From Candidatus Heimdallarchaeota archaeon (GTDB taxonomy: Archaea; Asgardarchaeota; Heimdallarchaeia; Heimdallarchaeales; Kariarchaeaceae), in the NCBI GenBank assembly GCA_030149205.1, contig JASBSB010000003.1, positions 210,001-242,000 on the forward strand: 32,000 nucleotides of DNA, read 5' to 3'. Made by a program: the position numbers and the translations under genes. The notes below the pieces were generated by a model. The model was not told where the DNA came from. It was given only the letters and a program-made list of their open reading frames with translations, and searched no databases. Of this stretch, positions 1,361 to 24,473 are shown one piece after another. How positions within the stretch are numbered: position 1 is the stretch's first letter; each line of letters starts with the position of its first letter.

Positions 1361-4300
1361 TTAATTATGATTCCTTAAATATCTTATCTTGCGATTAAAC
1401 ACCAGGACAACAAACGTTATTAAAATTATAAATCCTGCAAAGGGTATCGATTGAGTGGAAGTTGATTGAATAGGAGGGAGAGTGGATGGGTTATTGTTTT
1501 GGATACTAATTTGAACACTATAAGAATGTTGAAAGACACCATCTGTAAGTATAAGTTTCAGGGTATACTGACCATTTGAATAAAGAGTTGAATCAAACAA
1601 AATAAAGTTATTTGTTGAACTAAAGCCTACAATAACTGATAATGACCCATTGTTCAATAATACTGTCCCGGATACCCTGGTATCAGCACTCCATGATACA
1701 TTGTAGTTTCCAGATATTACATCCTGATTCTTTGGAGATAACATTTGGGATGAAAAATCTAAATGGTTATTGAACGTTGCATTAAAGGATTGTGTGAATA
1801 AAATTGGGAAATTCATCCCTTGAGTAACCTCTAGTCCAAAGTTGCCATTGGGGAAAAGGCTTGTGTTAAACCCTAAAGCTGTACCTACATTGGTAAATTG
1901 AGGGCCACTAATCGTATTAATTGTAATATTGAAAGGAAGAATAGCATTGTTGTAGGCTCCATTCACATAATCAATATATAGAATGTATTCACCGCTCTGA
2001 GGAATTGAAAAATATCCTGTCTCGTTGAAAGCACCAATCCTAGAACCATGTTGATTAAATAGATCAAAATTGGGGATGGCAGGGTCATTGATTGATATCA
2101 GATACATGTCCAGATCGACTTTTGAAGAGAAATAATCTAGAGAAATTTTTCCATGTGTACCTTTTTGAAAATTAAGAATAAAATTTTTTTCTGGTGATCC
2201 ACTGCCCTTTATGAAATCTAATTTAGAAAGAGAGCTTGTTATTTTTCTCTGAGACCCGGTATAAACCATTAGACTGGTATTTTTAATTTTTAGTTCTGGG
2301 AAGTTTGCAAGGTGATATGAATTGCTACTGAGTTTTAATTCACCAGATACATTATTCGTTAGGTTTTGATTAAAGCTAATATTTGGGGCTTTTAATACCC
2401 CAGGAACTAAATACCTAGCTGTAACAGCAAAAGTATAAGGTCCTGCAACAAATGGGGTTGCCACAAAATGGATCATAAGAGTGTACTCTCGAGATTTTAC
2501 ATTAATAAATAAGGTCTGAGTTTTTACATCAGAAAGAGTAACCACGTAAAATCCACCTCCCTTATAAGCAACATTTGAACTTGAAACAAGAACACCTTCT
2601 TTGTTATAGAGGTATAAGGCGGGTAATAATCCTGTCTGTGTCCAATTAACCTGAAGAGCGAATTGAGTTGCGTTGGAAGGTAATTTGAAGTCATAATACC
2701 TATAATCTCCTGCCTCTGGACGAGCTGTTTGACTAAGCCAATTGAAGGCTGCATAAGTTTGTCCTTGTTCAAATAGAGAGTTTAGGTTAAGGTCAGCTTT
2801 CATTTGTTTTACTGACTTCCCAAATCCGACCTCATGCTGGGCTAATATAGCTATGTGCCCATAATTTGTCGTGCTTCCATTCTGTATCATAAGTCTACCT
2901 AACTCATATGAATTGATTTGGACTGAAGAACTAATGTTGAGCTGTTTATTAGTGACCCCTAATGACAAATCTCCCCATGTCGTATGATTGAATGTTTGAG
3001 CATGAATTTGATAGACCAACCCATTCCAATTGGGGATTAAATTTACATATCCTGGGTCCTTCAACTGGAATGCGGGTACTCCAGAAAAATCATGGTTTGG
3101 GAATCCAGAATAAAATTGTGTTGCGTAGGCTGTTGTAAACGATTGATCTACCAAAGTCTTATTTATTCCTGTATCAACTAAATTAATTTCAGGAGGACTC
3201 AAACCGTACCGAGAAAGCTGAGTGTAAGTTCCATTAGATATTGAGCTTGAAATTACAAGTAACTCTTGGTTGTTGAATACCCCCTTCAATTCGTTAAACA
3301 CATATAGATCATTCGTGCTTAATCTAGTTTTAAATGTGAAACTTGTTGATTTGGTCCTGTTGAAAATTTGGATTTGTTTGTTCAAAAGGTTTGGATCAAC
3401 TAAGGATCCGTTTCCAAAACGAATCTGAACTGTTACCTCTTTTTTGGTAAGGTTTTGGGGATAGGTATAAATGAAGCTATCCGCCACAGGATTAAGCACT
3501 CCTGGATTTGGTGTATTAAATACTGCTTGAAATGCAGGAGAGAGCTTTTGAGCTATGTATTTTGCCCCTTGGGTGTCCCAGATTATTAGTTCATTATTTT
3601 TCATTACAGAGCTTACAGCACGATAAGCATCTACTAATCCGGCCCCTTGCATTATACTAGGATAGCCAAGGTTTTTTGCAGTACTTTTTAGCCTCGTTCT
3701 AACCTCAGCTAATGAGGAGGGATATCCTTTTTCTTTCAAAGCTTGAAAAACCAAGACTGCAATACCAGCAGTCCTAGGCGTGGCTTCACTTGTCCCACCA
3801 AACACACCTGCAGCCCTCGTTCCATTTCCTCTACCAAATGATACAGTTTTCAGTGTATATCCAAAGGAACCCAGGGCTACCAAGTCAGGTTTAATAATTC
3901 CAGATGGTGTCGGACCATTGCTGCTAAATAACGCAACGTCATTTTTTCCAGAGTTGTTGAAACTGTGAAAACTTGTAGAAGCACCTACAGTTATTGCAAG
4001 ACTAGCGGTACCAGGACTGGCAACTGTCCCAAAACCTGGCCCACCATTCCCTGAAGCAACAGTAAAAATAATGCCCTTGTAGTTTGGGTATGAAACACCA
4101 AATGATACTGATGAAAATATATCTGGTGTACTTAAGGCGTCCAACAACAGAGAGAATAAATCTAATCCTTTTAACGTTGAACCAATTGCACCAGACCCCC
4201 AAGAATTTGATGAAACATTTACAACATGTTCTCTGTTCACTACCCATCCTCCTCCTATTTTTGGTTCCAATCCAGCACTCCAGAGCCATCCCAGTACAAA

Positions 4301-5656
4301 ATCATTAAGGGTTAGCCCTTTTGTTGCAATTATACTAACATTTGGAGCTGAACCTGGAAGTGTGTAGTTTAAGTGAGATTCTACTTTAGGAGTTGTAAAA
4401 TTATCATAAATTTGATAATAAGTCTTTCCTCTGGATCCTGCAGCTGAGGCTACTTGGGTTCCATGTCCAATAGCATCATACATTATAGCCATACCCCTTC
4501 CAGACTTGTCAATTCCACGGACTAACCCCCCATTAACTTTTCCATTAAAATCAATAGAGACTGTTAATGAGCCCATCGAAATATCATTGACTCCATCCCC
4601 ATTTAAGTCCCTAGCAATGATTGGATTGCTTGAGTCATGAGGAGTTTCGTCAGTTAGAGACCAATCAACAAGCCTACGGTAGAGACTACCTCCAGAGAAT
4701 ATATCTCCATTTAAAGAGAGACTCAATCCCAAACTGGTGGAAAGATCAACATAAACAGTATCATACACCCCACTCGTTTTTGAGTCAACTAAAACATATA
4801 CAAAAACTTGTGTAAAGCTAGTTGGTTCATACATCATTCCAACTTTATAGACATTGCTTTTGGAAGTAACTGGAATACCAGTTATATCAATATTTTGAAC
4901 AGTAATCCCAATTTGTTGGGAGGAAGAAGATCCCCCTTGCTCCCCACGAGTAAATGATAAAGTTTTATTAAAAGTTGGTAAAAAGGTTTTTCCACTCTGT
5001 TGAATGGGCGAAACAGACAAGGAAGTTGCTGTAACCCCAGACCCAGTTGCATCAAATGTTGATGGAAGCCCACTTGAAGTCCTATATAATGATCCAGAAA
5101 GGTCAGTCACACCAAAATCGACCCCCGAATCAGTAATCCCTAGTATGATTCCTTGTCCTGAGATATTGTAATTAGACCATACATCAATTGTTCTAAGTAA
5201 ATGTGAAGCCAAAGATGCGTTTTTAATTGGACTTGCTGGCAATGATTGATTAAGACTATTAAATGGATTCGAAAAATCTATATTTTTATCATAGATGATC
5301 CCCTTTACTGATGGATTTCTTTGAATTGCAAAAAGTGATTGATTTGTGTATCTCTGAATAAAATGTAGATAGTTATTCCCAAGTTTGAAAGGAGGCAGGA
5401 ATTCACTTTGAAATTTAACACTTGAATCACTTAAGATCATTAGTTTCCCATTTGAGTTCGAAGGAGGAGGTGTGAACTGATTTGTAATCGACCCAAGTTT
5501 GTGAAGATCTGATTTAACTTTATTCAAACTTGAGTTTGTTGGAATATGAGAAGCTGCTCCGTTTTGAGAGTTTATAGTAAATAAACTGGATGTGAGTCCA
5601 GAGCTAAGTAATATTAGTAAGACAAATAGGAATTTTGGAAATCCTTTGTTTCCCAT
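1361..5656 (-). CDS. Secreted, C-terminally membrane-anchored S8 (subtilisin/pyrolysin-like) serine protease, 1431 aa
   Basis: N-terminal signal peptide. Catalytic motifs GITDSGVD (Asp), GHGTQVAS (His), ASGNGG (oxyanion Asn) and GGTSEATP (Ser). Long insert between Asp and His as in pyrolysin/TPP-II-like S8s. Beta-rich C-terminal domains including a PPC-like VDLDMYL segment. C-terminal TM helix plus basic tail. Confidence 0.92.
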   Translation of the reverse strand: MGNKGFPKFLFVLLILLSSGLTSSLFTINSQNGAASHIPTNSSLNKVKSDLHKLGSITNQFTPPPSNSNGKLMILSDSSVKFQSEFLPPFKLGNNYLHFIQRYTNQSLFAIQRNPSVKGIIYDKNIDFSNPFNSLNQSLPASPIKNASLASHLLRTIDVWSNYNISGQGIILGITDSGVDFGVTDLSGSLYRTSSGLPSTFDATGSGVTATSLSVSPIQQSGKTFLPTFNKTLSFTRGEQGGSSSSQQIGITVQNIDITGIPVTSKSNVYKVGMMYEPTSFTQVFVYVLVDSKTSGVYDTVYVDLSTSLGLSLSLNGDIFSGGSLYRRLVDWSLTDETPHDSSNPIIARDLNGDGVNDISMGSLTVSIDFNGKVNGGLVRGIDKSGRGMAIMYDAIGHGTQVASAAGSRGKTYYQIYDNFTTPKVESHLNYTLPGSAPNVSIIATKGLTLNDFVLGWLWSAGLEPKIGGGWVVNREHVVNVSSNSWGSGAIGSTLKGLDLFSLLLDALSTPDIFSSVSFGVSYPNYKGIIFTVASGNGGPGFGTVASPGTASLAITVGASTSFHSFNNSGKNDVALFSSNGPTPSGIIKPDLVALGSFGYTLKTVSFGRGNGTRAAGVFGGTSEATPRTAGIAVLVFQALKEKGYPSSLAEVRTRLKSTAKNLGYPSIMQGAGLVDAYRAVSSVMKNNELIIWDTQGAKYIAQKLSPAFQAVFNTPNPGVLNPVADSFIYTYPQNLTKKEVTVQIRFGNGSLVDPNLLNKQIQIFNRTKSTSFTFKTRLSTNDLYVFNELKGVFNNQELLVISSSISNGTYTQLSRYGLSPPEINLVDTGINKTLVDQSFTTAYATQFYSGFPNHDFSGVPAFQLKDPGYVNLIPNWNGLVYQIHAQTFNHTTWGDLSLGVTNKQLNISSSVQINSYELGRLMIQNGSTTNYGHIAILAQHEVGFGKSVKQMKADLNLNSLFEQGQTYAAFNWLSQTARPEAGDYRYYDFKLPSNATQFALQVNWTQTGLLPALYLYNKEGVLVSSSNVAYKGGGFYVVTLSDVKTQTLFINVKSREYTLMIHFVATPFVAGPYTFAVTARYLVPGVLKAPNISFNQNLTNNVSGELKLSSNSYHLANFPELKIKNTSLMVYTGSQRKITSSLSKLDFIKGSGSPEKNFILNFQKGTHGKISLDYFSSKVDLDMYLISINDPAIPNFDLFNQHGSRIGAFNETGYFSIPQSGEYILYIDYVNGAYNNAILPFNITINTISGPQFTNVGTALGFNTSLFPNGNFGLEVTQGMNFPILFTQSFNATFNNHLDFSSQMLSPKNQDVISGNYNVSWSADTRVSGTVLLNNGSLSVIVGFSSTNNFILFDSTLYSNGQYTLKLILTDGVFQHSYSVQISIQNNNPSTLPPIQSTSTQSIPFAGFIILITFVVLVFNRKIRYLRNHN

Positions 5657-5995: not shown

Positions 5996-6562
5996 TTATT
6001 GTTTTTCCTTATTTTCGAGTAACTCTACAATTATCTTTCCTAATTCTTTAAAGGCAGTCTCAACATTTTCACCAGTCTTAGCAGAAGTCTCAATATATTG
6101 AATACTAACTCCCTCTAGTTCCTTTCTGGATTGAAGTTGAGCAATAAAATTTTGTATTGTATCCAACTTCAAATCTTTAGACTTTTTAAGATCAATTTTA
6201 TTTCCAACAATAATCAGAGGGATTCTGAATGTTTTGTTTGATGTCCAAAGCTCATTTAACCAGCCAGGTAAGTTATAGAATGTCTCAGGTCTAGTTAAGT
6301 CAAATACAACAATTGCACCTTTAGCCTTAAGAAGGAATCTTTGTCTTATCGCTTTAAAGTGAGGTTGTCCAGCGAGATCCCAAATTTGAGCTTTCAAAAT
6401 TTTCCCTTCTCCAACCCTTATATCAGCATTTGCAAAATCAGATCCTAATGTCATCAAATGTGAGTTAGTAAACCCTTTTCCAATGTATCTTTTTCGTAAA
6501 CTAGTTTTACCAACTGCTCCCTCTCCCAAAATCACTACTTTAGCCACAAACGAGCCAGACAT
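5996..6562 (-). CDS. Rab-like small GTPase (Ras superfamily)
   Basis: G1 GEGAVGKT, switch I MTLGSDF, G3 WDLAGQ, G4 NKID, G5 ETSAK. Rab-family-like segments LGSDF, KAQIW, HFKAIR and VVFDLT. No C-terminal Cys prenylation motif. Confidence 0.93.
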   Translation of the reverse strand: MSGSFVAKVVILGEGAVGKTSLRKRYIGKGFTNSHLMTLGSDFANADIRVGEGKILKAQIWDLAGQPHFKAIRQRFLLKAKGAIVVFDLTRPETFYNLPGWLNELWTSNKTFRIPLIIVGNKIDLKKSKDLKLDTIQNFIAQLQSRKELEGVSIQYIETSAKTGENVETAFKELGKIIVELLENKEKQ

Positions 6563-6584
6563 TAACTAATATTCTTAATCATTG

Positions 6585-6593
6585 TATTTTAAG
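6585..6593 (-). promoter_or_regulatory. Putative TATA box of the Rab-like GTPase gene
   Basis: Minus-strand CTTAAAATA 23-31 nt upstream of the ATG at 6562. Confidence 0.35.
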
Positions 6594-6655
6594 ATTATGG
6601 AGTTGATTATGTTGATATTCAAAGCTTATTTTTTAGAAGGAAGAAATATTTGAAT

Positions 6656-7384
6656 TTAGTTTAATATTTCGATTAAACTTGGAGTAATGTCCAATTTCCC
6701 ATTGTTGTTTAATATCTTACCGTCAGCCTCTAGTTTTGTTATTGTTCGAGAAACCAATACGGGTGAGACACTTTTTACCATAGACTTAAGTTGTTCTTGT
6801 TCAACTGGTCGGTTCTCAGCAATTATTGAGAGAATCTCAACCTCAGGTATTTCCAATAACCCACTTGAAAGTAGAAAAGATAATCCTGAGAAATTGTTCA
6901 TAAGATTATTATGATCAGTCTTTAACTGTGAAACTTCTGATTTGAGTTGATCAACTTCTGAGTCTAAATTCTTAAGTAAGTTATTCTTTGTCTCCTGTTT
7001 TTCTTTTAAATCAGCTTCTGACTGAATGATTTTCGACTCCAAAAGGTTAATATCCTTTTGTAATGTCTCTTTTGTTTCTTTTAGGGTGGATATTTCTGTG
7101 TTAATACGATTAATTGTTTCATTCAACTGATTTTGGATACCCTGCTGATCAGAAATGTTTTTTTCAGTGACAGAGGTCTCGGTTTCAAGTTTTTGAACAT
7201 GCATAATTAGGCTAGAGCTTTGGGATTCTAATTGTTGGATAGTGGCTCGCAATTCTTTTTGATTCTCTTCTGCTTTCTTAAAAGAATCTCTAATATTTGT
7301 CAACAAGCCATTCATTTCATTTTGACTGGTCTTTAAACGGTTTATATGTTGATCCAACATCTGAAGTGTATCATCGAATTTCAT
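6656..7384 (-). CDS. Long coiled-coil protein with C-terminal winged-helix domain (paralog B)
   Basis: About 160 aa of heptad-rich Q/E/K/L sequence, then PEVEILSII...EQLKSMV...VLVSRTITKLEADGKI (wHTH pattern). Its ATG overlaps the upstream stop (TAATG at 7382-7386). Confidence 0.8.
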   Translation of the reverse strand: MKFDDTLQMLDQHINRLKTSQNEMNGLLTNIRDSFKKAEENQKELRATIQQLESQSSSLIMHVQKLETETSVTEKNISDQQGIQNQLNETINRINTEISTLKETKETLQKDINLLESKIIQSEADLKEKQETKNNLLKNLDSEVDQLKSEVSQLKTDHNNLMNNFSGLSFLLSSGLLEIPEVEILSIIAENRPVEQEQLKSMVKSVSPVLVSRTITKLEADGKILNNNGKLDITPSLIEILN

Positions 7385-8145
7385 TATAATCGTATCTCCT
7401 TTTTAATTTCAAAGTTGCCTGAAGGCTTTTCATAAGATATAATACCTTTTTCATGTAGTGACATTAGAATTTTGTTTACATTATCTTTTGAGACTCCACT
7501 TGAGAGTGCAAGTTGACCCAAGTTTGACATATTAGATTCACTTAGTGCTTTTAGAACATCATAGGTTGAATCTTTGATGTATGAGTCCTTCAGAAGCTTT
7601 TGGAGAACTTTAAATTGCATCTGTTTTTTGGAAATTTCAGACTTCAATTGATCTCGCTCCTTTACAATGTCCTTTACCCTGTTTTTGTGTTCATTTTCAG
7701 CTTGGATTAAGGCCTCATCAGCTGCTTGAAGGTTTTTTTCAAGATTGTCGTATTTCACTTTCGTCGTTCCATAATGGTCTTTGAGTTTTTCAACCTCGTG
7801 GGACAATTCACCCTTTTCTTTGTTCAAAGATTCAGAATGTTGTTTTAAGGTGTTAATGTTCTCTTGTATTTCCATTTGTTGTTTTAGTTGACTTTCTTTC
7901 TTTGTCTCAAGATTTTTTTTCTTTTGTTCATTACCTGTTATTTGTTCTTCTAATTGGGTCTTTTTTTGACTTAACTCATTTAGTGACTCCCAGAAGGAAT
8001 TTAACTCTGCTGTATCGGTTTCAAGTTTAGTGTGAAAACTGCTTACAAACTCATCATGAAATGATTTATATGATTTAAGTTCTATTTTGAGTTTATCAAA
8101 ATAATTTGATATTTCAGCCTGTTCCATTGAATTAAAATTAAGCAC
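7384..8145 (-). CDS. Long coiled-coil protein with C-terminal winged-helix domain (paralog A); alternative ATG at 8127
   Basis: About 170 aa coiled coil, then TYDVLKAL...LGQLALSSGVSKDNVNKILMSLHEKGIISY (wHTH pattern). No Walker motifs. Confidence 0.8.
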   Translation of the reverse strand: MLNFNSMEQAEISNYFDKLKIELKSYKSFHDEFVSSFHTKLETDTAELNSFWESLNELSQKKTQLEEQITGNEQKKKNLETKKESQLKQQMEIQENINTLKQHSESLNKEKGELSHEVEKLKDHYGTTKVKYDNLEKNLQAADEALIQAENEHKNRVKDIVKERDQLKSEISKKQMQFKVLQKLLKDSYIKDSTYDVLKALSESNMSNLGQLALSSGVSKDNVNKILMSLHEKGIISYEKPSGNFEIKKEIRL

Positions 8146-8251: not shown

Positions 8252-10384
8252 TTATTTTTGCTCGAGAAATATTATATTAGAATCTCCGGGTATGTAATGT
8301 GCAAACTCTGATAAATCTAGAGTATATATCTTTCTAAGATCTTGTTTATCAACTAACCGCCCAAAATGTTCTTTTACCCGCTTTGCTACTTTTCCTCTAG
8401 GTGTGTCCCCTGGAATGAGCTTGACAATATGGTTACACTTATGGTTCTGAAGTGTGCTTAATGAACCCACCATCAACCGAGCCCAGTTAGGTTCTATAAT
8501 TATACCAAGATATAGCTCCAATGAAATATTTCGGATATAATGCTTTTCACCGTATACCATTATTGAACCTTGTGGCATAAATTCACCACTTGGTGCATTT
8601 AATGAGACTTGTTCAGGTTCTACCATGTAAGCATCAGCCACTACCCTTTTAGATTTCCAAGCTGATGAAAAACACACACCTAATAAAGCTGCTAGATTTA
8701 CCGTATTTTCAGAAGGAGTCTTCCCGTTCGATTTGATGATAACGAAGGGTGCACCTACAAGATCAGGGTGAATAAAAAAATCGTCCACATCAAGATATTT
8801 ACGAACTAACTGCTCATTCGTTTTTGCATCTAAACCTGCGATAATTATTGTGTTATCTTCACTAATTGTCCATCTCCATTTCTCATACCATCTCTTTCTC
8901 CTCTTGAGAAGAGTTACTTCAACTTGAACATCATTTCTTTTAGATTCAGCTGTAGTTTCAGCCTCTTTTATTTTCTCCTCAGTCAACCGAATTGCCTTAT
9001 TTGCTCCAACAGCTTTATGTTCTTGTTTTTTGGACTTCTCATACAACTCATTTGCAATTTTACTTATCTGCTTCCTGAAATCTAATCCTATAACCTTTTT
9101 TGATTTTGGAAGCTTTACATAAATCAAACCAACTGATGGTTCGATTCTCTCATACAATTTCACGGATGGAATGTTTCGATCTTTAGCAATTTGTAGTTTA
9201 TCAGTTATATCTTCCCATGAAACATTATTTTTTCTGGCGTTATATACTGTTGTTAGAAGCTCATCTATCTCTGTAAAATTTTCGTATATCTCGTTAGCTG
9301 ATTCTTTCACTTCTATTGCTGATTTTTCCATTTCTTTTTGATGGTTCAACTGTTGTTTTAATCTATTTTTAAGTCTATCAGCTTCAGTTTCTAATTGTTC
9401 TGCATCTCCGATTAACTCTGTGTGATCCTCTTGGGATGAGTAGAATACATCATAAGCTAAGTTTAGGGTTTCAACAAAAACCAAATTTGTATTTTCAATT
9501 TCTCCTTGTGGCCAAGGTAGAATCTTAATTACTTGTTCTGGGTCAAAGGGAAGTTCGTCATCAGACCATTGATCATCAAAATCAACCTCTGTATCTTCGA
9601 TTTGTTCACTCGTACTTTCATTATCCAATTCAACATCATTGGTCTCATCACTTTCAACTCCAGTATCTAAATAAACAACTGGGTTGTATTGATTTTGTGT
9701 TAACCTTGCATAGAGGTCATAAACTGCTCTTGTTAGGTATTCTTGCTCTTGACTTGTCAATTCTTCAATCTTTTTTTTAGTAATTTTTGCTTCTTTAAGA
9801 AGATATTTTGAATAGAATGGCCCAAGACCAACCCAGTTATTAAGTGCAATAACTACCTTTCCAGTTGTAGAATAAAGATGACTTATTTCATCTATCCCAT
9901 TTGTTAGGATGTTTCTACCTTGTGTAGGCATATGTTGAAATATTCTACCTGGATGAATATCTCTGTCTCTCATTTTACGGTATCTAAGAGCTACGACTAT
10001 TTTATCATTTGGAGAAATCAAAATTAAATTACCCTCACCAAATAGTTCAATTACTACCCTATATCCCTTATCTGGTCCTATATTCAACTCAATTACTCTA
10101 TCTGCTTCAACTTGTTTAAGTTCATTAATTCTCCTATCTCTTAGATGACTTCGTAACTGTTTAGTTAACTGTGGTGGTTCTGTGGGCATTTTTCTATTAA
10201 ATTTCGTAATATGAAATCTCTTACCTGGTTCTACAAGTAGAAATATTTGACCTAACTCAGGTTTTCTAAGTTTAAAGATAAAAATATTTGAGGACATCTG
10301 GTAAATATTAGTTATCCAAGCTCCTACAATTAAATTTTCAGCCTCATGAACTAAGACCCTCACATCAACACTGGTTAAACTCAT
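8252..10384 (-). CDS. rqcH: Ribosome quality-control factor RqcH/Rqc2 (NEMF, NFACT family)
   Basis: NFACT-N start MSLTSVDV...ITNIYQ...LLVEPGKRFHIT, with EADRVI (the DR motif) and ELFGEGNLIL. Central coiled coil, then WYEKWRW, IIAGLDAKTNEQLV, FFIHPDLVGAP and SSAWK (NFACT-R), and APSGEFMPQGSIMVYG. Confidence 0.92.
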   Translation of the reverse strand: MSLTSVDVRVLVHEAENLIVGAWITNIYQMSSNIFIFKLRKPELGQIFLLVEPGKRFHITKFNRKMPTEPPQLTKQLRSHLRDRRINELKQVEADRVIELNIGPDKGYRVVIELFGEGNLILISPNDKIVVALRYRKMRDRDIHPGRIFQHMPTQGRNILTNGIDEISHLYSTTGKVVIALNNWVGLGPFYSKYLLKEAKITKKKIEELTSQEQEYLTRAVYDLYARLTQNQYNPVVYLDTGVESDETNDVELDNESTSEQIEDTEVDFDDQWSDDELPFDPEQVIKILPWPQGEIENTNLVFVETLNLAYDVFYSSQEDHTELIGDAEQLETEADRLKNRLKQQLNHQKEMEKSAIEVKESANEIYENFTEIDELLTTVYNARKNNVSWEDITDKLQIAKDRNIPSVKLYERIEPSVGLIYVKLPKSKKVIGLDFRKQISKIANELYEKSKKQEHKAVGANKAIRLTEEKIKEAETTAESKRNDVQVEVTLLKRRKRWYEKWRWTISEDNTIIIAGLDAKTNEQLVRKYLDVDDFFIHPDLVGAPFVIIKSNGKTPSENTVNLAALLGVCFSSAWKSKRVVADAYMVEPEQVSLNAPSGEFMPQGSIMVYGEKHYIRNISLELYLGIIIEPNWARLMVGSLSTLQNHKCNHIVKLIPGDTPRGKVAKRVKEHFGRLVDKQDLRKIYTLDLSEFAHYIPGDSNIIFLEQK

Positions 10385-11941: not shown

Positions 11942-12322
11942 CTATTGAGTTTTATCTGATTCGATAATTTCTAGTTTGGTCCGACATACAGGACAAGTGG
12001 AATTGCTCAGTAACCAACTGAATAAATGATTGTAATGAAAAGTACTCAAACAAGAGGGACAAATAATGAGGTCTTTATCAACCTTCTCCCTACAAATGTC
12101 ACAACTATGTTTCTCACCATTTGGCGCATATATTTGCTTCATTTTAATAAATGAGCTACTATCTACTCTGTGTCCACAATGGGGACAAAACTTTGATGTG
12201 GGAGATAAAGGTTTTTTGCAGGACTCACACAGTTTTTGATCCGTATTTACTGATGCACCACATTTATGGCAATATTGAGAGGAATCTCGTAAGTTTGCAC
12301 CACAATTATTACAGTTCAACAA
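11942..12322 (-). CDS. Double zinc ribbon plus C-terminal RING finger protein (putative E3 ubiquitin ligase)
   Basis: Four N-terminal CxxC pairs (CNNC, CHKC, CESC, CPHC), then CDIC-x10-CPSC-x4-H-x2-H-LFSW-x6-CPVCR with RING hallmark Trp, Pro and linchpin Arg. Confidence 0.85.
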   Translation of the reverse strand: MLNCNNCGANLRDSSQYCHKCGASVNTDQKLCESCKKPLSPTSKFCPHCGHRVDSSSFIKMKQIYAPNGEKHSCDICREKVDKDLIICPSCLSTFHYNHLFSWLLSNSTCPVCRTKLEIIESDKTQ

Positions 12323-19457: not shown

Positions 19458-20756
19458 CTATAAATTAAGTAATTTCCTTTTCTTATATAAGACAACAAGA
19501 ACACCAAAACCAACTAAAAAGAATAAAAAGTTAAATGGTGAAGGTGCTTTACCAACAAATATTGGAGCGGTTGTAGCCAACTTAGTAGAGTTCAAAGTTA
19601 AAGTATCACTTTTCCATGACCCTATTGTAACAAGACTTGCCTTTCCACCTGTTGTTTGTACTTGCCAAATGTCATAACTTGCTTTAGATACATCACCATT
19701 GGTATCGAAAGTGATAGTTCCAGATGCACCCTGGAAATTGGTTCCCACTGTCTTGATTTGAGCATTGACATCAGCGCCTACGGTTGATTGAGCTTTAATT
19801 ACAGCATCACCAATAATAGTTGCTGCATCATAAGCTTCAGCAACGAAAATAGTTGGATCCACATTGTATGCTTTTTTGTATTCTGCATTAAATGTAGGAG
19901 TACCTGTTACTCCGGGAGCAGAACCAACCACACCATTCATGCTATCATTCACTCCAGGATTCTTGAACATTGAACTAGTCCCAATTCCATCTGTACCCAT
20001 TATAGGAACATAAACTCCCTGTTTCTTTAATTCATTTAATATTGCAGATCCATCGGTCACAAAACTAACCATAAAAATCCCATCAGGTTTAGAATTTTTT
20101 ATATTTGTAACCTGAGAGGAGAAATCCTTTTGAGTGGCTTGATCATAAGCTTGTGTAGTGGTAATATTGTTAGTAGAGTTTTGAGCCTTGAAAGCCGTTG
20201 TAAAGGCATTGATTAAACCTTGACCATAAGCATCATTTAAACCAATAACAGCAACATTATGTAAATTGAAGTGTTTTGCTAATGAAGCGTCAGCTTGTCC
20301 TTGATAAGTATCTGAAGGAACAACTCTCCAAAGATATCCACTATCAGCAGCAGTTGTAAGTGAAGGAGATGTTGAAGCATAAGAAATCATCGGTATTTTA
20401 TTCGCTACTGCAACCGGCAATGCTGATAGAGTAGATGAAGATGCTGCAGCGCCTACGATCCCAGATACTCCTGCTGTTGCGAGAGCGGCTATAGCATCTT
20501 TTGCTCCTGTAGGGGTGGTTTTTGTATCTTGAGTAACCAAAGAGAAAGTGTATGTACTCTGCTTCTTGTTTAAATCGCTAACAGCAAGCTTGGCACCATT
20601 TTCAAATGAGAGACCAAGCGAACCCAGAGATCCTGTCTTAGGAGCAAGCAATCCAATCTTGACTGGAGTTGCTGCATGGGTGACTTGAACGAGTTGAGGC
20701 ATTGAAAAAGCCATCAAGACGATCAATGAGATAGATAGTAAACTAATCTTTTTCAT
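19458..20756 (-). CDS. Branched-chain amino acid ABC transporter substrate-binding protein (LivK/LivJ-like, PBP1 fold) with C-terminal TM anchor
   Basis: Signal peptide, VKIGLLAPKTG, IVGAAASSST, MISYASTSPSL, YLWRVVPSD, AEAYDA; C-terminal SPF-hydrophobic-KKRK. SD AGGTGA upstream of the ATG. Confidence 0.9.
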   Translation of the reverse strand: MKKISLLSISLIVLMAFSMPQLVQVTHAATPVKIGLLAPKTGSLGSLGLSFENGAKLAVSDLNKKQSTYTFSLVTQDTKTTPTGAKDAIAALATAGVSGIVGAAASSSTLSALPVAVANKIPMISYASTSPSLTTAADSGYLWRVVPSDTYQGQADASLAKHFNLHNVAVIGLNDAYGQGLINAFTTAFKAQNSTNNITTTQAYDQATQKDFSSQVTNIKNSKPDGIFMVSFVTDGSAILNELKKQGVYVPIMGTDGIGTSSMFKNPGVNDSMNGVVGSAPGVTGTPTFNAEYKKAYNVDPTIFVAEAYDAATIIGDAVIKAQSTVGADVNAQIKTVGTNFQGASGTITFDTNGDVSKASYDIWQVQTTGGKASLVTIGSWKSDTLTLNSTKLATTAPIFVGKAPSPFNFLFFLVGFGVLVVLYKKRKLLNL

Positions 20757-20929: not shown

Positions 20930-21277
20930 CTAATTAATTGCAAAATTTTCAATGTTAATTGCGATTTGACCCTGCTCTTTGTGTTGTATTTCGGCATTTC
21001 CAGGGGCTATAACCAAAAGATTGTTCTGTAACAATTTTCCAAATCCAAATCCTCCTGACTTTGATTTGATTGAAATCTCTAATAGCTTGATCCCAATAAA
21101 TTCAGAATTGAAACGTTTTAGACCCTCTTGAATTAACTCCAACTGCTCCTCAGGATTAAGTTTAGATTCAAGAATTAAAATTTTTGAGTTTTCAATTAGA
21201 TTAATGATAAATTTGATCCTCTGTTTTCTTGAGAGGAGCTCTAATCGACTGGCAGTAATAAATTCGATCGACTGTAT
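20930..21277 (-). CDS. oapB: DUF2073-family protein (OapB/ArvB-like), 115 aa, apparent ATA start
   Basis: The frame is open 45 codons upstream of the tracked TTG (21142): IQSIEFITASRLELLSRKQRIKFIINLIENSKILILESKLNPEEQLELIQEGLKRFNSEFIGIKLLEI...LLVIAPGN. This matches the DUF2073 pattern I-x-I-E-F...K-I-L-x-L-E-x-x-L-x-P-E-E...F-x-G-I...L-x-V-I-G/A-P. It lies directly after the oapA stop. Confidence 0.8.
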   Translation of the reverse strand: MQSIEFITASRLELLSRKQRIKFIINLIENSKILILESKLNPEEQLELIQEGLKRFNSEFIGIKLLEISIKSKSGGFGFGKLLQNNLLVIAPGNAEIQHKEQGQIAINIENFAIN

Positions 21278-21278
21278 A

Positions 21279-21884
21279 TTAGACCACCTCTAAAAGTTTT
21301 GAATAAAGCTCATCGATCCCCTTTCCGTAAAGTGCTGAAATTGGTACGACCTTATGATTAGGGAATGTGGAACTTATAACCTCAGGTTTTGCTTCAGGTA
21401 AATCAGATTTGTTTGCTACAATTATGGTCTTCTTTTTCTGCATTTCAAGTGTCCCCAATAATGTTAAACTTACCTGGTCAAAAGGTGTCTTAGTAGAATC
21501 CATTAAAACTAATGCAACGTCAACTTCTTGTAGATATTTTATAGCTTTAATCACTCCAGAAGTGGCTTCTTTTGCACGTTCAATTGCATTTTCTTCTGTT
21601 ATACCTTGTTTAACAAAATCTTTGTAATCAATCGCACTGGCTATACCAGGTGTATCAACCAACGTAAGATCTAGCTTAGAGCCGTTATGGTTGAAATCTA
21701 CATGTTCTAATGTTACTAGATCTCGGGTTTCATGTGCGATTTGGGAGACTGCCGACATATCTGAGCCTATAAAATCATTTGAAAATCGATTAGCGAGGGT
21801 AGACTTACCAGTGTTTACCTCACCAATCAAACAGACCGAAGCTTCTTTTTTCCGATTCAATAGCTTCGTTAAAAATTTATTCAT
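21279..21884 (-). CDS. oapA: Archaeal Era-like small GTPase OapA/ArvA (no KH domain)
   Basis: GEVNTGKSTLANR, AHETR, VDTPGI, IDYKDF, AIERAKEATSGVIKAI, DSTKTPFDQV, ANKSDL, FPNHKVVPISALYG. HETR, RAKEATxGV and FPxH are typical of this family. ATG 21884 preferred over TTG 21902. Confidence 0.88.
   Translation of the reverse strand: MNKFLTKLLNRKKEASVCLIGEVNTGKSTLANRFSNDFIGSDMSAVSQIAHETRDLVTLEHVDFNHNGSKLDLTLVDTPGIASAIDYKDFVKQGITEENAIERAKEATSGVIKAIKYLQEVDVALVLMDSTKTPFDQVSLTLLGTLEMQKKKTIIVANKSDLPEAKPEVISSTFPNHKVVPISALYGKGIDELYSKLLEVV
21285..21290 (-). promoter_or_regulatory. Shine-Dalgarno GAGGTG for the oapB/arvB ATA start
   Basis: Minus strand reads GAGGTG-gtctaat-ATA, a 7-nt spacer. It is embedded in the last codons of oapA. 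Confidence 0.65.
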
Positions 21885-22054
21885 CAATTGAGCTACATGC
21901 AATTTTTATTTATTTTCTAAGAATACTCATATGTTATATGGATATGTAATTTCAAATGGATGACAAAAATTCAAAAATTATTAAAAAAATTAAAAATATA
22001 TTGCAAACCTATTCTGGGACAAAGATTGAGGGAAGTCTGAACTCAGATTCATTT

Positions 22055-22474
22055 TTAGTAATCTGGATTTTCGAGAAGGAGTCGAGAAACTAAACTTTGA
22101 ACGGATATGACTTGATCTCTCTGATAGGTTTGTTTTCCAAACCATTCCATCTCTCTGCAATCATCATCGATGATGACTTCGTTAGTATCTAGAGTTAATA
22201 TCAATGGATACAACCTACAACCCATGGGTCTATCGTAATATATTGTACATTGACCCTCTTTATTCAGAAAGAAACACCTACCATCAACATTTCTTAACTG
22301 CCAAAACCCATCAGCTTGTTTTGGATCCAAACAAAATTCTTCTCGGTTAAATCCTTTAGCTTCTATTCTTTCCAGATCCTCACTTGAAAGTAACATCTCA
22401 GTGTTTAAACAGCATTTATGGCAATCCCTAAAGCCACATTTAACCTTCACCTCATTATCATCCATATCAATCAT
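22055..22474 (-). CDS. YkgJ-family cysteine-cluster (putative Zn/Fe-S) protein
   Basis: CxxxxCxxCC (CGFRDCHKCC), then CFFL, CTIYYDRPMGCRLYP. Confidence 0.85.
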   Translation of the reverse strand: MIDMDDNEVKVKCGFRDCHKCCLNTEMLLSSEDLERIEAKGFNREEFCLDPKQADGFWQLRNVDGRCFFLNKEGQCTIYYDRPMGCRLYPLILTLDTNEVIIDDDCREMEWFGKQTYQRDQVISVQSLVSRLLLENPDY

Positions 22475-22490
22475 AACCTAGTTATCACTC

Positions 22491-22991
22491 CTATTCATTT
22501 ATTAGATTTAGGACAATATTAATAGTTTCATCTATGTCAATATTCAATATTTCTATCACTTTATCTTTTCCAAAGGCCTCAATTGATCGTAGATAACATT
22601 CCTTGAATATTTCTGCCTCAATGTTTTCCTTTACCTTGGATTCCTTGTAACCTCGACGAATCAATCGATCTTGGAGTATTTTTAGATCTGAAGTAAGGAC
22701 TATGCATTTCTTTACAAATCTAGGTGGGATTAAATCGGTGAGATGACCTACAATAACAATATTCTCAGTTGAAGGTAAAGTTTCTTCCAATTTCGTATTT
22801 AATACACGGTGTACTATCTGCTCATCTAGCACATAAGTCTCTTTTTCATCATCATAATCATTTAACAGGTCTAATTGACGATACAGGTCTTTTTCTTCGA
22901 TAACATAGTACCCCTTTTCATTCAATAATTTTCCAATCGTTGATTTACCTGTACCAGGTGTGCCATTAATAACAAATATCTTATAATTCAT
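22491..22991 (-). CDS. Adenylate kinase, AK6/Fap7 (archaeal AdkA-like) type
   Basis: INGTPGTGKST, VGHL (hhhxH motif), RLIRRGYKESKVKENIEAEI. ATGA overlap with the upstream Zn-ribbon gene. Confidence 0.88.
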   Translation of the reverse strand: MNYKIFVINGTPGTGKSTIGKLLNEKGYYVIEEKDLYRQLDLLNDYDDEKETYVLDEQIVHRVLNTKLEETLPSTENIVIVGHLTDLIPPRFVKKCIVLTSDLKILQDRLIRRGYKESKVKENIEAEIFKECYLRSIEAFGKDKVIEILNIDIDETINIVLNLINE

Positions 22992-23302
22992 TCATCATCT
23001 GGGTTGAATATCATTCTGACAACACCATCTTTATCTTCAATTGGTATTGGGTCATTTTCGTTCCTATTCATGAGATGATTTAAATTCAATTGGTATGCAC
23101 CATGACCTTTGATTTTTATTCCTATATTAGATTCATCCCCTGGTTTTAACTTATCAATTTCAGGTTCAATCTCCAATTCTCTGGATTTGCCAATAAACTT
23201 TATTTTCTTACTTTTACAGCTTTTACATCCCTCAAACAAGGCAACTGCTACATCTGAGATATCTACGCCACAATTTCCACAGACTGCAAATTCTTTATCC
23301 AT
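22988..23302 (-). CDS. oapC: DUF2072-family Zn-ribbon protein (OapC/ArvC-like)
   Basis: CGNCG...LFEGCKSCKSKKIKF and IGIKIKGHGAYQLNLNHLM...DGVVRM match the DUF2072 pattern CxxCG...GCxxCG...IxIxxxGxYxxNLxxL. TATA-like ATTTAAATAA at 23331-23340. Confidence 0.75.
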   Translation of the reverse strand: MDKEFAVCGNCGVDISDVAVALFEGCKSCKSKKIKFIGKSRELEIEPEIDKLKPGDESNIGIKIKGHGAYQLNLNHLMNRNENDPIPIEDKDGVVRMIFNPDDE

Positions 23303-23444: not shown

Positions 23445-24041
23445 GTGTACATCATAGTTCCATCTCGTGGAGTCAAATATTCAAAATCAAGATTAAGAAT
23501 GAAATTGAACAATACTATGGTGAATAATTTAGTTAGCATTATGTTGGATCACACAATTTCACTTCTAAACCAAATGGATTGCAATATAATCCTATTGTCT
23601 CCAGACAAGAATCTGTCAAAAAGATACAGGTCGGAAAGATTAATTCAAATTGTTGATTCAGGTGACTCCTTAACTTCAGCAGTCCAACAAGTGCTTTCAG
23701 CTCCTGAGCTTAAACATATCAACAACTTTTATCTGATTATGCCTGATATCCCAGAGTTAACAAGTAAAATATTGACAAAATTGATACAAAATTCAAAGCA
23801 TTTTGATAACTTTCTCGTTCCGACGACAGATAAAGGAATCGCATTTTTAAAGTTAAGCAGAGAGAATTTAAGATTAGTTAAATTTGGTCAAAATTCTTCT
23901 TTACAGTTTCAACAAATTACTGAAGTAAATTTAGATGAAAGTTTCGTTTTAAATGATTTAGATACTGAAAATGACTGGAATCAGTTGAAGACTAGTGAGT
24001 TGTTTTCGCAGACTGTTTACAAAACTTTATTTTCCAGCTGA
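23445..24041 (+). CDS. cofC: 2-phospho-L-lactate/phosphoenolpyruvate guanylyltransferase CofC-like
   Basis: IIVPSRGVKYSKSRL, IMPDIP, LVPTTDKG, FGQNS and DLDTEND match the CofC pattern; cofD lies 3.6 kb downstream. The sequence is divergent. Confidence 0.72.
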   Translation: MYIIVPSRGVKYSKSRLRMKLNNTMVNNLVSIMLDHTISLLNQMDCNIILLSPDKNLSKRYRSERLIQIVDSGDSLTSAVQQVLSAPELKHINNFYLIMPDIPELTSKILTKLIQNSKHFDNFLVPTTDKGIAFLKLSRENLRLVKFGQNSSLQFQQITEVNLDESFVLNDLDTENDWNQLKTSELFSQTVYKTLFSS

Positions 24042-24473
24042 CATCATGTCGACCGTGACAGTTGCAACACCAGGAATTGCCTTGAATTCATTCTTTACTG
24101 TTTCAATTGATACGTTTTCTAATTCTGTACTATCGAAATATCCCTCATAAACACATGCGTCTTGGGTGAAACACAAACCTGTAGAATACAAGGTTTTTAT
24201 ACCAAGTCTGATAAATATCGATCCCATCTGACGTAGAAAATCCGGAGAGAGTTTACCAATATTGATATTTATTTTAGTTACTGTGTCAGAATTTGTGGGG
24301 ATAATTCTAATTATTCGTGTATTGGGGGCCAAAATAATCACAGCGTATCGACCCTGATCTTTTTGTAAAGCTTCGATAAACTTATCAGGGAGTCTTATTG
24401 GCTCATTTTGGTCTATAATTGTCATATGTGCGATAGTTACTTCAGCTGGTTTGTTTGTTTCTTCTTCAGTCAT
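24027..24473 (-). CDS. Hypothetical protein with AbrB/MazE-like N-terminus and ACT-like C-terminal domain
   Basis: IIDQNEPIRLPDKFIEAL...YAVII...IIRIIP resembles a swapped-hairpin domain. The C-terminal alternating beta/alpha segment ends in IPGVATVTV (ACT-like) and carries TGLCFTQDAC. The CDS is well supported; the fold assignment is tentative. Confidence 0.6.
   Translation of the reverse strand: MTEEETNKPAEVTIAHMTIIDQNEPIRLPDKFIEALQKDQGRYAVIILAPNTRIIRIIPTNSDTVTKININIGKLSPDFLRQMGSIFIRLGIKTLYSTGLCFTQDACVYEGYFDSTELENVSIETVKNEFKAIPGVATVTVDMMSAGK

Follow-up and report, generated by a model that had tools for sequence, protein, structure and literature searches.

What does a complete set of the archaeal genes dipA, dipB, and dipC do in a member of the Heimdallarchaeia, the archaea closest to eukaryotes? 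The set lies at positions 20930–23302 of the window, i.e., the whole stretch of 32,000 nucleotides analysed here (Candidatus Heimdallarchaeota archaeon, GCA_030149205.1, contig JASBSB010000003.1; assembly of 3.3 Mb in 12 contigs, 93.5% complete). DipABC, ArvABC, and OapABC are three names for the same gene set. The locus is a genuine, complete DipABC/ArvABC module of the Asgard clade and is ordinary for its class; it belongs to a known kind of system, and the window adds no new kind. We put at roughly 65% the probability that its products form a heimdallarchaeial DipABC ortholog set working as a nucleotide-driven membrane switch that places a single FtsZ ring, with the genes split in two transcription units.

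The locus consists of five tightly packed open reading frames (ORFs), all co-directional on the minus strand, in the order C-AK6-YkgJ-A-B. The GTPase DipA (21279–21884) has 201 amino acids and one domain (MMR_HSR1, 62 bits); dipB (20930–21277) is a frame of 115 codons (PF09846, DUF2073, 43.5 bits, cut-off 27); dipC (22988–23302) encodes a Zn-ribbon protein of 104 amino acids (PF09845, DUF2072, 30.1 bits, cut-off 23), and its stop codon shares the letters ATGA with the ATG of the AK6 gene by direct reading. A first-pass annotation of the same DNA had these coordinates, the identities of A, B, and C, the gene order, and the ATGA overlap correct, as ORF reading and the profile searches it proposed both bear out. 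In an NCBIfam scan, no model specific to A, B, or C was found; matches to the GTPase were generic or sub-threshold. The attribution to an Asgard-type genome was also right: among named records, the GTPase is closest to homologs from Candidatus Kariarchaeaceae (67% identity) and Heimdallarchaeota LC_2 (65%), and its counterpart on a same-genus contig titled Candidatus Heimdallarchaeota archaeon is 81% identical. Within the genus, identity is 77–81% for DipA, 37–41% for DipB, and 25–35% for DipC.

PF09845 aligns with residues 56–82 of DipC only, in the C-terminal part. The Zn ribbon is formed by C8, C11, C26, and C29, followed by the C-terminal block G.Y.[IL]N[LV]..L...P[IL]....G; the four cysteines and G68 are invariant in a 24-row alignment of the family. 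A profile built from this alignment (A4) had the window dipC as its only strong match genome-wide (82.9 bits), which agrees with the DUF2072 identity proposed at first pass; the same gene was recovered although a whole-genome scan with PF09845 gave nothing at E ≤ 0.001. With a profile seeded on OapC (DipC), the gene was found downstream of OapB (DipB) in most of 80 named archaeal loci, and profiles made from B and C both recovered the canonical downstream genes in most of the named loci. dipC varies in its distance: where present it mostly lies close downstream of dipB, and in one locus (L095) 5 kb away. In families f7 and f4, dipC is on a different contig from dipAB. In five Woesearchaeota-type loci (L073, L110, L112, L113, L118), a second GTPase gene of ~400 amino acids was seen convergent on the dipC end; a similar second GTPase lies up to about 0.6 kb from dipC in L119 and L122.

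Two sets of experiments bear on the function of the module. In Haloferax, HVO_3014–3012 were renamed ArvABC for their effects on extracellular vesicles (Mills et al. 2024, PMC10927574): knockout of arvA abolished RNA-containing vesicles and its overexpression gave 3.5-fold more, knockout of arvB gave 3.1-fold fewer, and knockout of arvC 1.65-fold more. The same study counted 1,666 homologs in 14 archaeal phyla, with ArvB directly downstream in 93% and ArvC within two genes in 78%, and proposed a guanine nucleotide exchange factor (GEF) role for ArvB. A later preprint describes the same Haloferax operon as DipABC, a Min-like oscillator positioning the FtsZ ring (He et al. 2026, bioRxiv 10.64898/2026.05.19.726155): DipA, DipB, and DipC all oscillate between the two poles; in deletion strains the divisome is misplaced and minicells form; Archaeoglobus fulgidus DipA binds liposomes only with GTP, an ability lost in the L7R helix mutant; DipB stimulates the DipA GTPase and detaches DipA from membranes; and overexpression of DipC abolishes FtsZ1 filaments. 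The system was noted there in "some species" of Asgard archaea, with dipC in some a "loner" apart from dipAB. Vesicle formation, taken as the established function at first pass, was indeed shown for arvA in Haloferax, and is now one of two competing published readings, the other being divisome positioning (He et al. 2026).

The most likely working of the window module is this published cycle of GTP-driven membrane binding and release acting on FtsZ placement, with vesicle budding as the main rival output. DipA-GTP would bind the membrane via its N-terminal amphipathic helix; DipB would bind DipA, stimulate GTP hydrolysis, and free DipA from the membrane, these steps having been shown in relatives. 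The Zn-ribbon protein DipC would be the output subunit acting on FtsZ, and the cycle would place the single FtsZ ring of the organism. Vesicle budding may come as an additional output of the module, or may result from the same membrane cycle.

The sequence of DipA has the parts that such a switch would use. The full G1–G5 set is present within its 201 amino acids (G1 GEVNTGKS; G2 T53, within AHETR; G3 DTPG; G4 NKSD; G5 SAL), and the signatures IPHETR (AHETR in the window), DTPG, RAKEATxG, PFDQ, and NKxD are common to 49 relatives; the family-invariant columns H51, E52, T53, R103, A104, A107, T108, G110, P134, Q137, and G144 of the alignments are retained. The gene is single copy in the genome. 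The P-loop GEVNTGKS, remarked on at first pass as deviating from a usual GPPNAGK-like form, is present as described and is not peculiar to this gene: GEVNTGKS occurs in nearly all rows of family f1 and in f4, and GEVNAGKT in f2 and f7, so GEVN[TA]GK[ST] is the lineage norm. At the N-terminus, MNKFLTKLLNR ranks first in helical hydrophobic moment among the 191 11-mers of the protein (0.64; mean 0.27) and has a net charge of +3, in line with the amphipathic MNKFLTKLL pointed out earlier; its hydrophobic pair and basic cluster are family-wide, with the same pattern in 48 relatives. The helix spans residues 2–12 by sequence; residues 4–9 are helical in the AlphaFold2 (AF2) model, with low confidence there. 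It is a candidate membrane-targeting element, and GTP-dependent membrane binding and GTP hydrolysis by the window DipA would be expected from the behaviour of A. fulgidus DipA.

The AF2 model (predicted local distance difference test, pLDDT, 90.1) is a bare G domain with the short N-terminal helix. Its closest folds are the G domains of Era, MnmE, EngA, and EngB, followed by Ras and Rab. To the first group (3IEV, 2GJ8, 3PQC) it aligns with TM scores by query of 0.62–0.70 and 22–28% identity; unlike those proteins, DipA has no KH or other RNA-binding domain, and it has the amphipathic helix and the family-specific helices that form the predicted DipB site.

A direct contact between DipA and DipB is supported by complex prediction. 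For the A-B part of the A-B-C assembly whose modelling had been proposed at first pass, a contact was predicted with a score of 0.76 (best control 0.23), a level that 58 of 80 solved complexes attained, as did 2 of 110 mismatched pairs; our own alignments were used, and the calibration holds only roughly. The runs agreed on at least 91% of contacts, with a partner pLDDT of 73 or more. On the DipA side, the predicted interface comprises switch II (81–87) and two family helices, RAKEATxG (101–116) and Q137–Q149, which carry the family-invariant residues of RAKEATxG and Q137...G144; on the DipB side, it comprises the conserved region LxPxEExxLI...FxGI. Conservation is higher at the interface than in the rest of both proteins (DipA, 0.74 vs. 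0.61; DipB, 0.50 vs. 0.38). We know of no solved complex of this family. The predicted interface would fit a direct action of DipB on the GTPase, like the one measured with the proteins of A. fulgidus.

The genome of the window has one FtsZ (FtsZ_C, 91.7 bits), and SepF (PF04472) gave no match in it (93.5% complete). FtsZ is present in every Asgard family that has OapB; FtsZ_C was found in 90 of 90 high-quality genomes of the phylum, in 385 of 400 genomes altogether, and in 132 of 135 of family f20. One FtsZ_C match per genome was seen in the order of the window and in families f5 and f6; two were seen in most genomes of f7, f11, f13, f14, f20, and f31.

How ordinary the module is can be read from its distribution. 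OapB was found in 39 of 41 genomes of the order, 72 of 82 of the class, and 97 of 400 of the phylum; by family within the class, the counts are f1, 10/11; f2, 29/31; f3, 1/1; f4, 3/3; f5, 21/22; f6, 2/2; and f7, 6/12. Outside the class it occurs in families f11, f13, f14, f24, and f30, with none in the sampled members of f20 (0/135), f12 (0/19), and f19 (0/14). Dip is missing from the two largest sampled Asgard families (f20 and f31) and from f19, though FtsZ is kept there. Since most Asgard genomes have FtsZ without Dip, Dip is not a general FtsZ partner in the phylum: Dip implies FtsZ, not the reverse. The occurrence in an Asgard genome is therefore not a novelty, and neither is a dipC gene apart from dipAB; Asgard homologs had also already been recorded by Mills et al. 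2024 and He et al. 2026.

The DipA tree speaks for descent within the phylum. It comprises 131 GTPases, each adjoining OapB, from our Asgard loci and the 80 best named loci (LG+G4, quick search, midpoint root); it has no outgroup, and no Halobacteria are in the sample, since none of the 80 best matches was haloarchaeal. A split with SH-aLRT support of 100 separates all 62 rows of the phylum from 69 euryarchaeal, DPANN, and Hydrothermarchaeota rows. On the Asgard side, genus g1 (96), family f1 (99), and f1+f4 (98) are recovered, and the window row lies in the genus clade. Because of this split and the respected order of families and genera, the tree fits inheritance within the phylum and not a recent import, i.e., the vertical side of the question raised at first pass; the label "Euryarchaeota-style" given to the module there is not supported, as the Asgard DipA rows stand on their own side. 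Two sequences titled otherwise fall inside the Asgard clade, L064 (CAZFGR010000001.1, "Nitrososphaerota") and L050 (DATKZI010000022.1, "Bathyarchaeia"), and their titles seem wrong; DipA of L064 is identical to that of a genome placed in the phylum of the window. A second dipAB pair was seen in one same-genus genome (G002:C238:1791-2051, L027); its GTPase is near-identical to that of the f4 genome G014, and the pair looks like a foreign contig in the bin, not a paralog.

Several points weigh against assigning the module to FtsZ placement. The experiments cover Haloferax and Archaeoglobus proteins and none from an Asgard member, and the divisome work is a preprint. dipB is without a canonical start codon and may be weakly expressed or newly inactivated (see below). 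The Haloferax protein that was studied has a disordered linker, which is missing from the very short DipC of the window. As for the complex, its score expresses a model's confidence and comes from our own alignments. Two Snf7/ESCRT-III genes are present in the genome, and FtsZ may not be its sole division machinery; finally, FtsZ is far more widespread among Asgard genomes than OapB (385 vs. 97 of 400).

The best surviving alternative is that the module is primarily a vesicle-budding machine, in which the helix of ArvA-GTP would insert into the membrane and deform it in the manner of Arf/Sar1, ArvB and ArvC would regulate it, and the vesicles would be extracellular or possibly internal. We regard this as rather unlikely as the primary role. 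The knockout and overexpression effects of Mills et al. 2024 speak for it, and the window protein has the same amphipathic helix and GTPase motifs; however, oscillation, divisome mislocalisation, and minicells were reported for the same genes (He et al. 2026), the stimulation of hydrolysis and the detachment of DipA by DipB differ from the GEF role proposed by Mills et al., and the change in vesicles may be secondary to division or membrane defects. Both studies were done outside Asgard cells, and the window does not separate the two outputs.

Another alternative starts from dipB. At 21277–21275, 1 nucleotide after the dipA stop, its start position reads ATA, a point that the first-pass annotation left unmentioned while identifying the frame correctly as DUF2073. 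The start at the homologous place is canonical in all 20 relatives checked, from nine families of the phylum (19 ATG, 1 TTG); it lies 2–6 codons ahead of the I-(E/D)-F motif and a few bases from the GTPase stop. The window frame opens at 21289, only 4 codons earlier than 21277, and none of its first 45 codons is ATG, GTG, or TTG. An upstream start was rejected, as the 4-codon extension holds no start codon. A dipA-dipB fusion by +1 frameshift was likewise rejected: GTC-TAA-T gives no re-pairing, and the relatives have separate genes with their own starts. The ATA may reflect near-cognate initiation aided by coupling, a loss that happened very recently, or an error of the assembly. Among public read runs, one (X1, possibly the source) contains the whole stretch; two others gave fragments 85–97% identical, and base 21275 is not among the positions covered by their listed differences. 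No RNA run containing the stretch was found.

The module could be decaying, with the change from ATG to ATA silencing dipB, an inversion uncoupling dipC, and DipA alone functional, or the ATA could be an error of the assembly; we judge this improbable. The missing start codon and its constancy in the relatives speak for it. Against it, the frame of 115 codons is open and keeps the conserved blocks IEF, ILxLE, LxPxEE, FxGI, and AP, the AF2 model of its product is confident (pLDDT 90.1), and the Shine-Dalgarno-like GAGGTGG upstream of the ATA and the 1-nucleotide spacing from stop to start are retained, so that any loss would be very recent. dipB is probably still translated from AUA; we infer that stop-start coupling helps here, together with the Shine-Dalgarno-like motif, which is retained.

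The fold of the DipB model may be of the Alba/SepF type. Compared with SepF and Alba structures (3ZIE, 3ZIH, 7AL1, 1UDV), it superimposes over 73–77 residues with Z of 6.1–6.5 and a root mean square deviation of 2.5–3.2; by VIA, Z is 6.1–6.4 for SepF and 6.5 for Alba, with SpoVS tied, and these values fall short of those at which true relatives can be told from common arrangements. A Foldseek search with the model gave no match at E ≤ 0.001. The likeness agrees with published remarks, but as a model comparison it is not discriminating. DipB is the only SepF/Alba-like fold that we came across in the genome of the window.

Between dipC and dipAB lie the genes of a Fap7/AK6-type kinase (22491–22991, minus strand, 166 amino acids; AAA_18, 90 bits) and of a YkgJ-type CxxCxxCC (UPF0153) metal-binding protein (22055–22474, minus strand, 139 amino acids; PF03692, 54.5 bits). 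The kinase is a clear homolog of Fap7/AK6 (hCINAP), the NTPase that matures the small ribosomal subunit: its best PDB matches are human AK6 (1RKB, 3IIJ, 5JZV; E about 1e-18) and Pyrococcus abyssi Fap7 (4CVN; E 7e-14), and it is the sole copy detected in the genome. AK6 lies at most 1.3 kb from dipB in four Asgard families and in three relative orientations: in f1, 5 of 6 informative genomes; in f2, 24 of 24 genomes, convergent and 3–17 nucleotides apart; in f7, 3 of 3 genomes and one similar named record, co-directional as A-B-AK6 and 33–59 nucleotides apart; in f14, 2 of 2 genomes and a Freyarchaeota record, with A-B-C convergent with AK6. The neighbours in f7 and f14 are true Fap7/AK6 homologs, and in f3 an AK6-like match lies 0.9 kb away, as a looser fifth family. 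Duplicate genomes were discounted in these counts, and kin genomes are non-independent, so that they stand for about three lineages. AK6 does not adjoin dipB in f4, f5, f11, f13, f24, and f30, and none of 47 informative loci outside the Asgard archaea has the two side by side.

The adjacency, observed here, is specific to Asgard archaea, and no paper on a link of Fap7/AK6 to the Dip/Arv system was found in our searches; the pattern may be inherited synteny. A functional tie between the module and Fap7/AK6 in Asgard archaea is conceivable, and we would give it low odds. The evidence for it is that AK6 lies directly 3' of dipAB(C) in three or more deep Asgard lineages, even where orientations have changed and where dipC is elsewhere in the genome, and never in the sampled euryarchaeal or DPANN loci. 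If true, it would link division or membrane remodelling to ribosome production, or AK6 would double as a partner of Dip. The first-pass annotation had named a ribosome-biogenesis role as one that the tie to AK6/Fap7 could point to; the tie recurs in Asgard genomes, and nothing here shows the role.

That the GTPase is an Era-like ribosome-assembly factor acting with Fap7/AK6 on the small subunit, the adjacency reflecting a common pathway, is highly improbable: among solved structures the nearest to it are Era in complex with the 16S 3' end (3IEV; E 1.4e-11, 27% identity), EngA, MnmE, and EngB, and the Asgard-only adjacency in three orientations and the dipC-AK6 overlap would suit it, but against this stand the bare G domain of DipA, its conserved N-terminal membrane helix, the direct membrane and division data in relatives, the families where AK6 is not adjacent, the status of AK6 as the sole housekeeping copy, and the possibility that the synteny in kin genomes was inherited.

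Placement of FtsZ by a membrane switch, the preferred reading, includes a split of the genes in two transcription units, which can be followed by comparing gene orders. On the plus strand, the window reads SBP(-) [B A](-) [YkgJ AK6 C](-) CofC(+), where SBP is a branched-chain-amino-acid-type ABC transporter substrate-binding protein (19458–20756, minus strand; Peripla_BP_6, 153 bits) and CofC a CofC-like guanylyltransferase (23445–24041, plus strand; PF01983, 53 bits; TIGR03552, 84 bits). These flanks match those of the congeners, and the single-operon order A-B-C is not kept. In three congeneric species the order is SBP(-) | A B C AK6 YkgJ CofC(+). In four further genera of the family, C diverges from A-B, accompanied by AK6 and YkgJ wherever the contig extends far enough; in family f2, A and B converge with AK6, and C, CofC, and YkgJ lie no more than about 5 kb away. 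YkgJ comes after AK6 in the same-genus genomes, as it does in G004; CofC is co-directional after ykgJ in the same-genus genomes and divergent from dipC in the window. If the divergent layout, SBP(-) [B A](-) [C AK6 YkgJ](+) CofC(+), is taken as the starting point, a single inversion of the 1.3-kb C-AK6-YkgJ block, a trivial change, gives the window order, and a single inversion of the A-B block gives that of the congeners. "Rearranged", the word used at first pass, is thus apt insofar as the order differs from A-B-C, and it covers just this one block; the synteny survey proposed there gave the A-B-C-AK6-YkgJ order of the congeners and the divergent C of the sister genera. Inverted repeats at the block boundaries are limited to scattered arms of 14–24 nucleotides with 71–93% complementarity, none of which pair two of the three boundaries; the boundaries show no sign of a recombination site. 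The AT-rich spacer of 170 nucleotides between ykgJ and dipA (21885–22054, minus strand) probably carries the own promoter of dipAB, since dipAB is a separate, divergently transcribed unit in the sister genera.

Set beside DipABC of Haloferax volcanii (HVO_3014–3012) and A. fulgidus, the window has the same three families, a helix-bearing GTPase with DUF2073 and DUF2072 proteins; dipB directly follows dipA, FtsZ co-occurs, and the predicted A-B contact agrees with the reported interaction. In contrast to Haloferax, dipC is upstream, with AK6 and ykgJ between it and dipAB; DipC has 104 amino acids, the shortest form seen, with almost no linker and an acidic C-terminal end, vs. about 330 amino acids; the P-loop is GEVNTGKS vs. 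GPPNAGKT; dipB has ATA; and the host has ESCRT-III. The module is also not beside orc1/cdc6: no Orc gene was found among the window ORFs in Pfam scans, and the three Cdc6_C matches of the genome are on contigs C8 and C4, the window being on C7, so the "origin-associated" context of Haloferax does not hold here. Bacterial MinCDE combines a nucleotide-dependent membrane binder, a releasing activator, and an FtsZ inhibitor, and its MinD is a deviant Walker A ATPase; it would be a functional analogue without relation in sequence or fold, DipA being a TRAFAC GTPase.

Further features of the window were noted in passing. A Ras-family small GTPase (PF00071, 138.8 bits) at 5996–6562 corresponds to the Rab-like GTPase mentioned at first pass; upstream of it, within 5996–8145 (minus strand), are a coiled-coil protein of 242 amino acids with a weak C-terminal MarR-like match and a protein of 253 amino acids without a Pfam family, and an NFACT protein follows at 8252–10384. 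A subtilase-family protein of 1,431 amino acids (1361–5656, minus strand) has Peptidase_S8 spread over residues 167–672, and a protein of 126 amino acids (11942–12322, minus strand) has a double zinc ribbon and a RING-type finger (zf-RING_2, 28.3 bits, cut-off 27.3). The CofC-like gene and a CofD-like gene (27636–28559, plus strand), both of F420 biosynthesis type, are 3.6 kb apart, with unannotated proteins of 610 and 306 amino acids between them. Beside CofC, at 24027–24473 (minus strand), is a protein of 148 amino acids without a Pfam or NCBIfam family, homologs of which lie 2–6 kb from dipAB in f4 and f3 genomes (L039:2222–2665; L040:15839–16276).

For the biology of the Heimdallarchaeia, a Min-like, vesicle-linked GTPase switch appears as a near-constant and, by its tree, vertically inherited part of the class. 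An earlier survey had found ArvA in 8 of 183 Asgard genomes (Mills et al. 2024); the counts given here for the phylum and the class correct the impression of a system marginal in Asgard archaea. Its distribution and its AK6 neighbour give concrete targets for biochemistry and for the comparison of division control among Asgard archaea.

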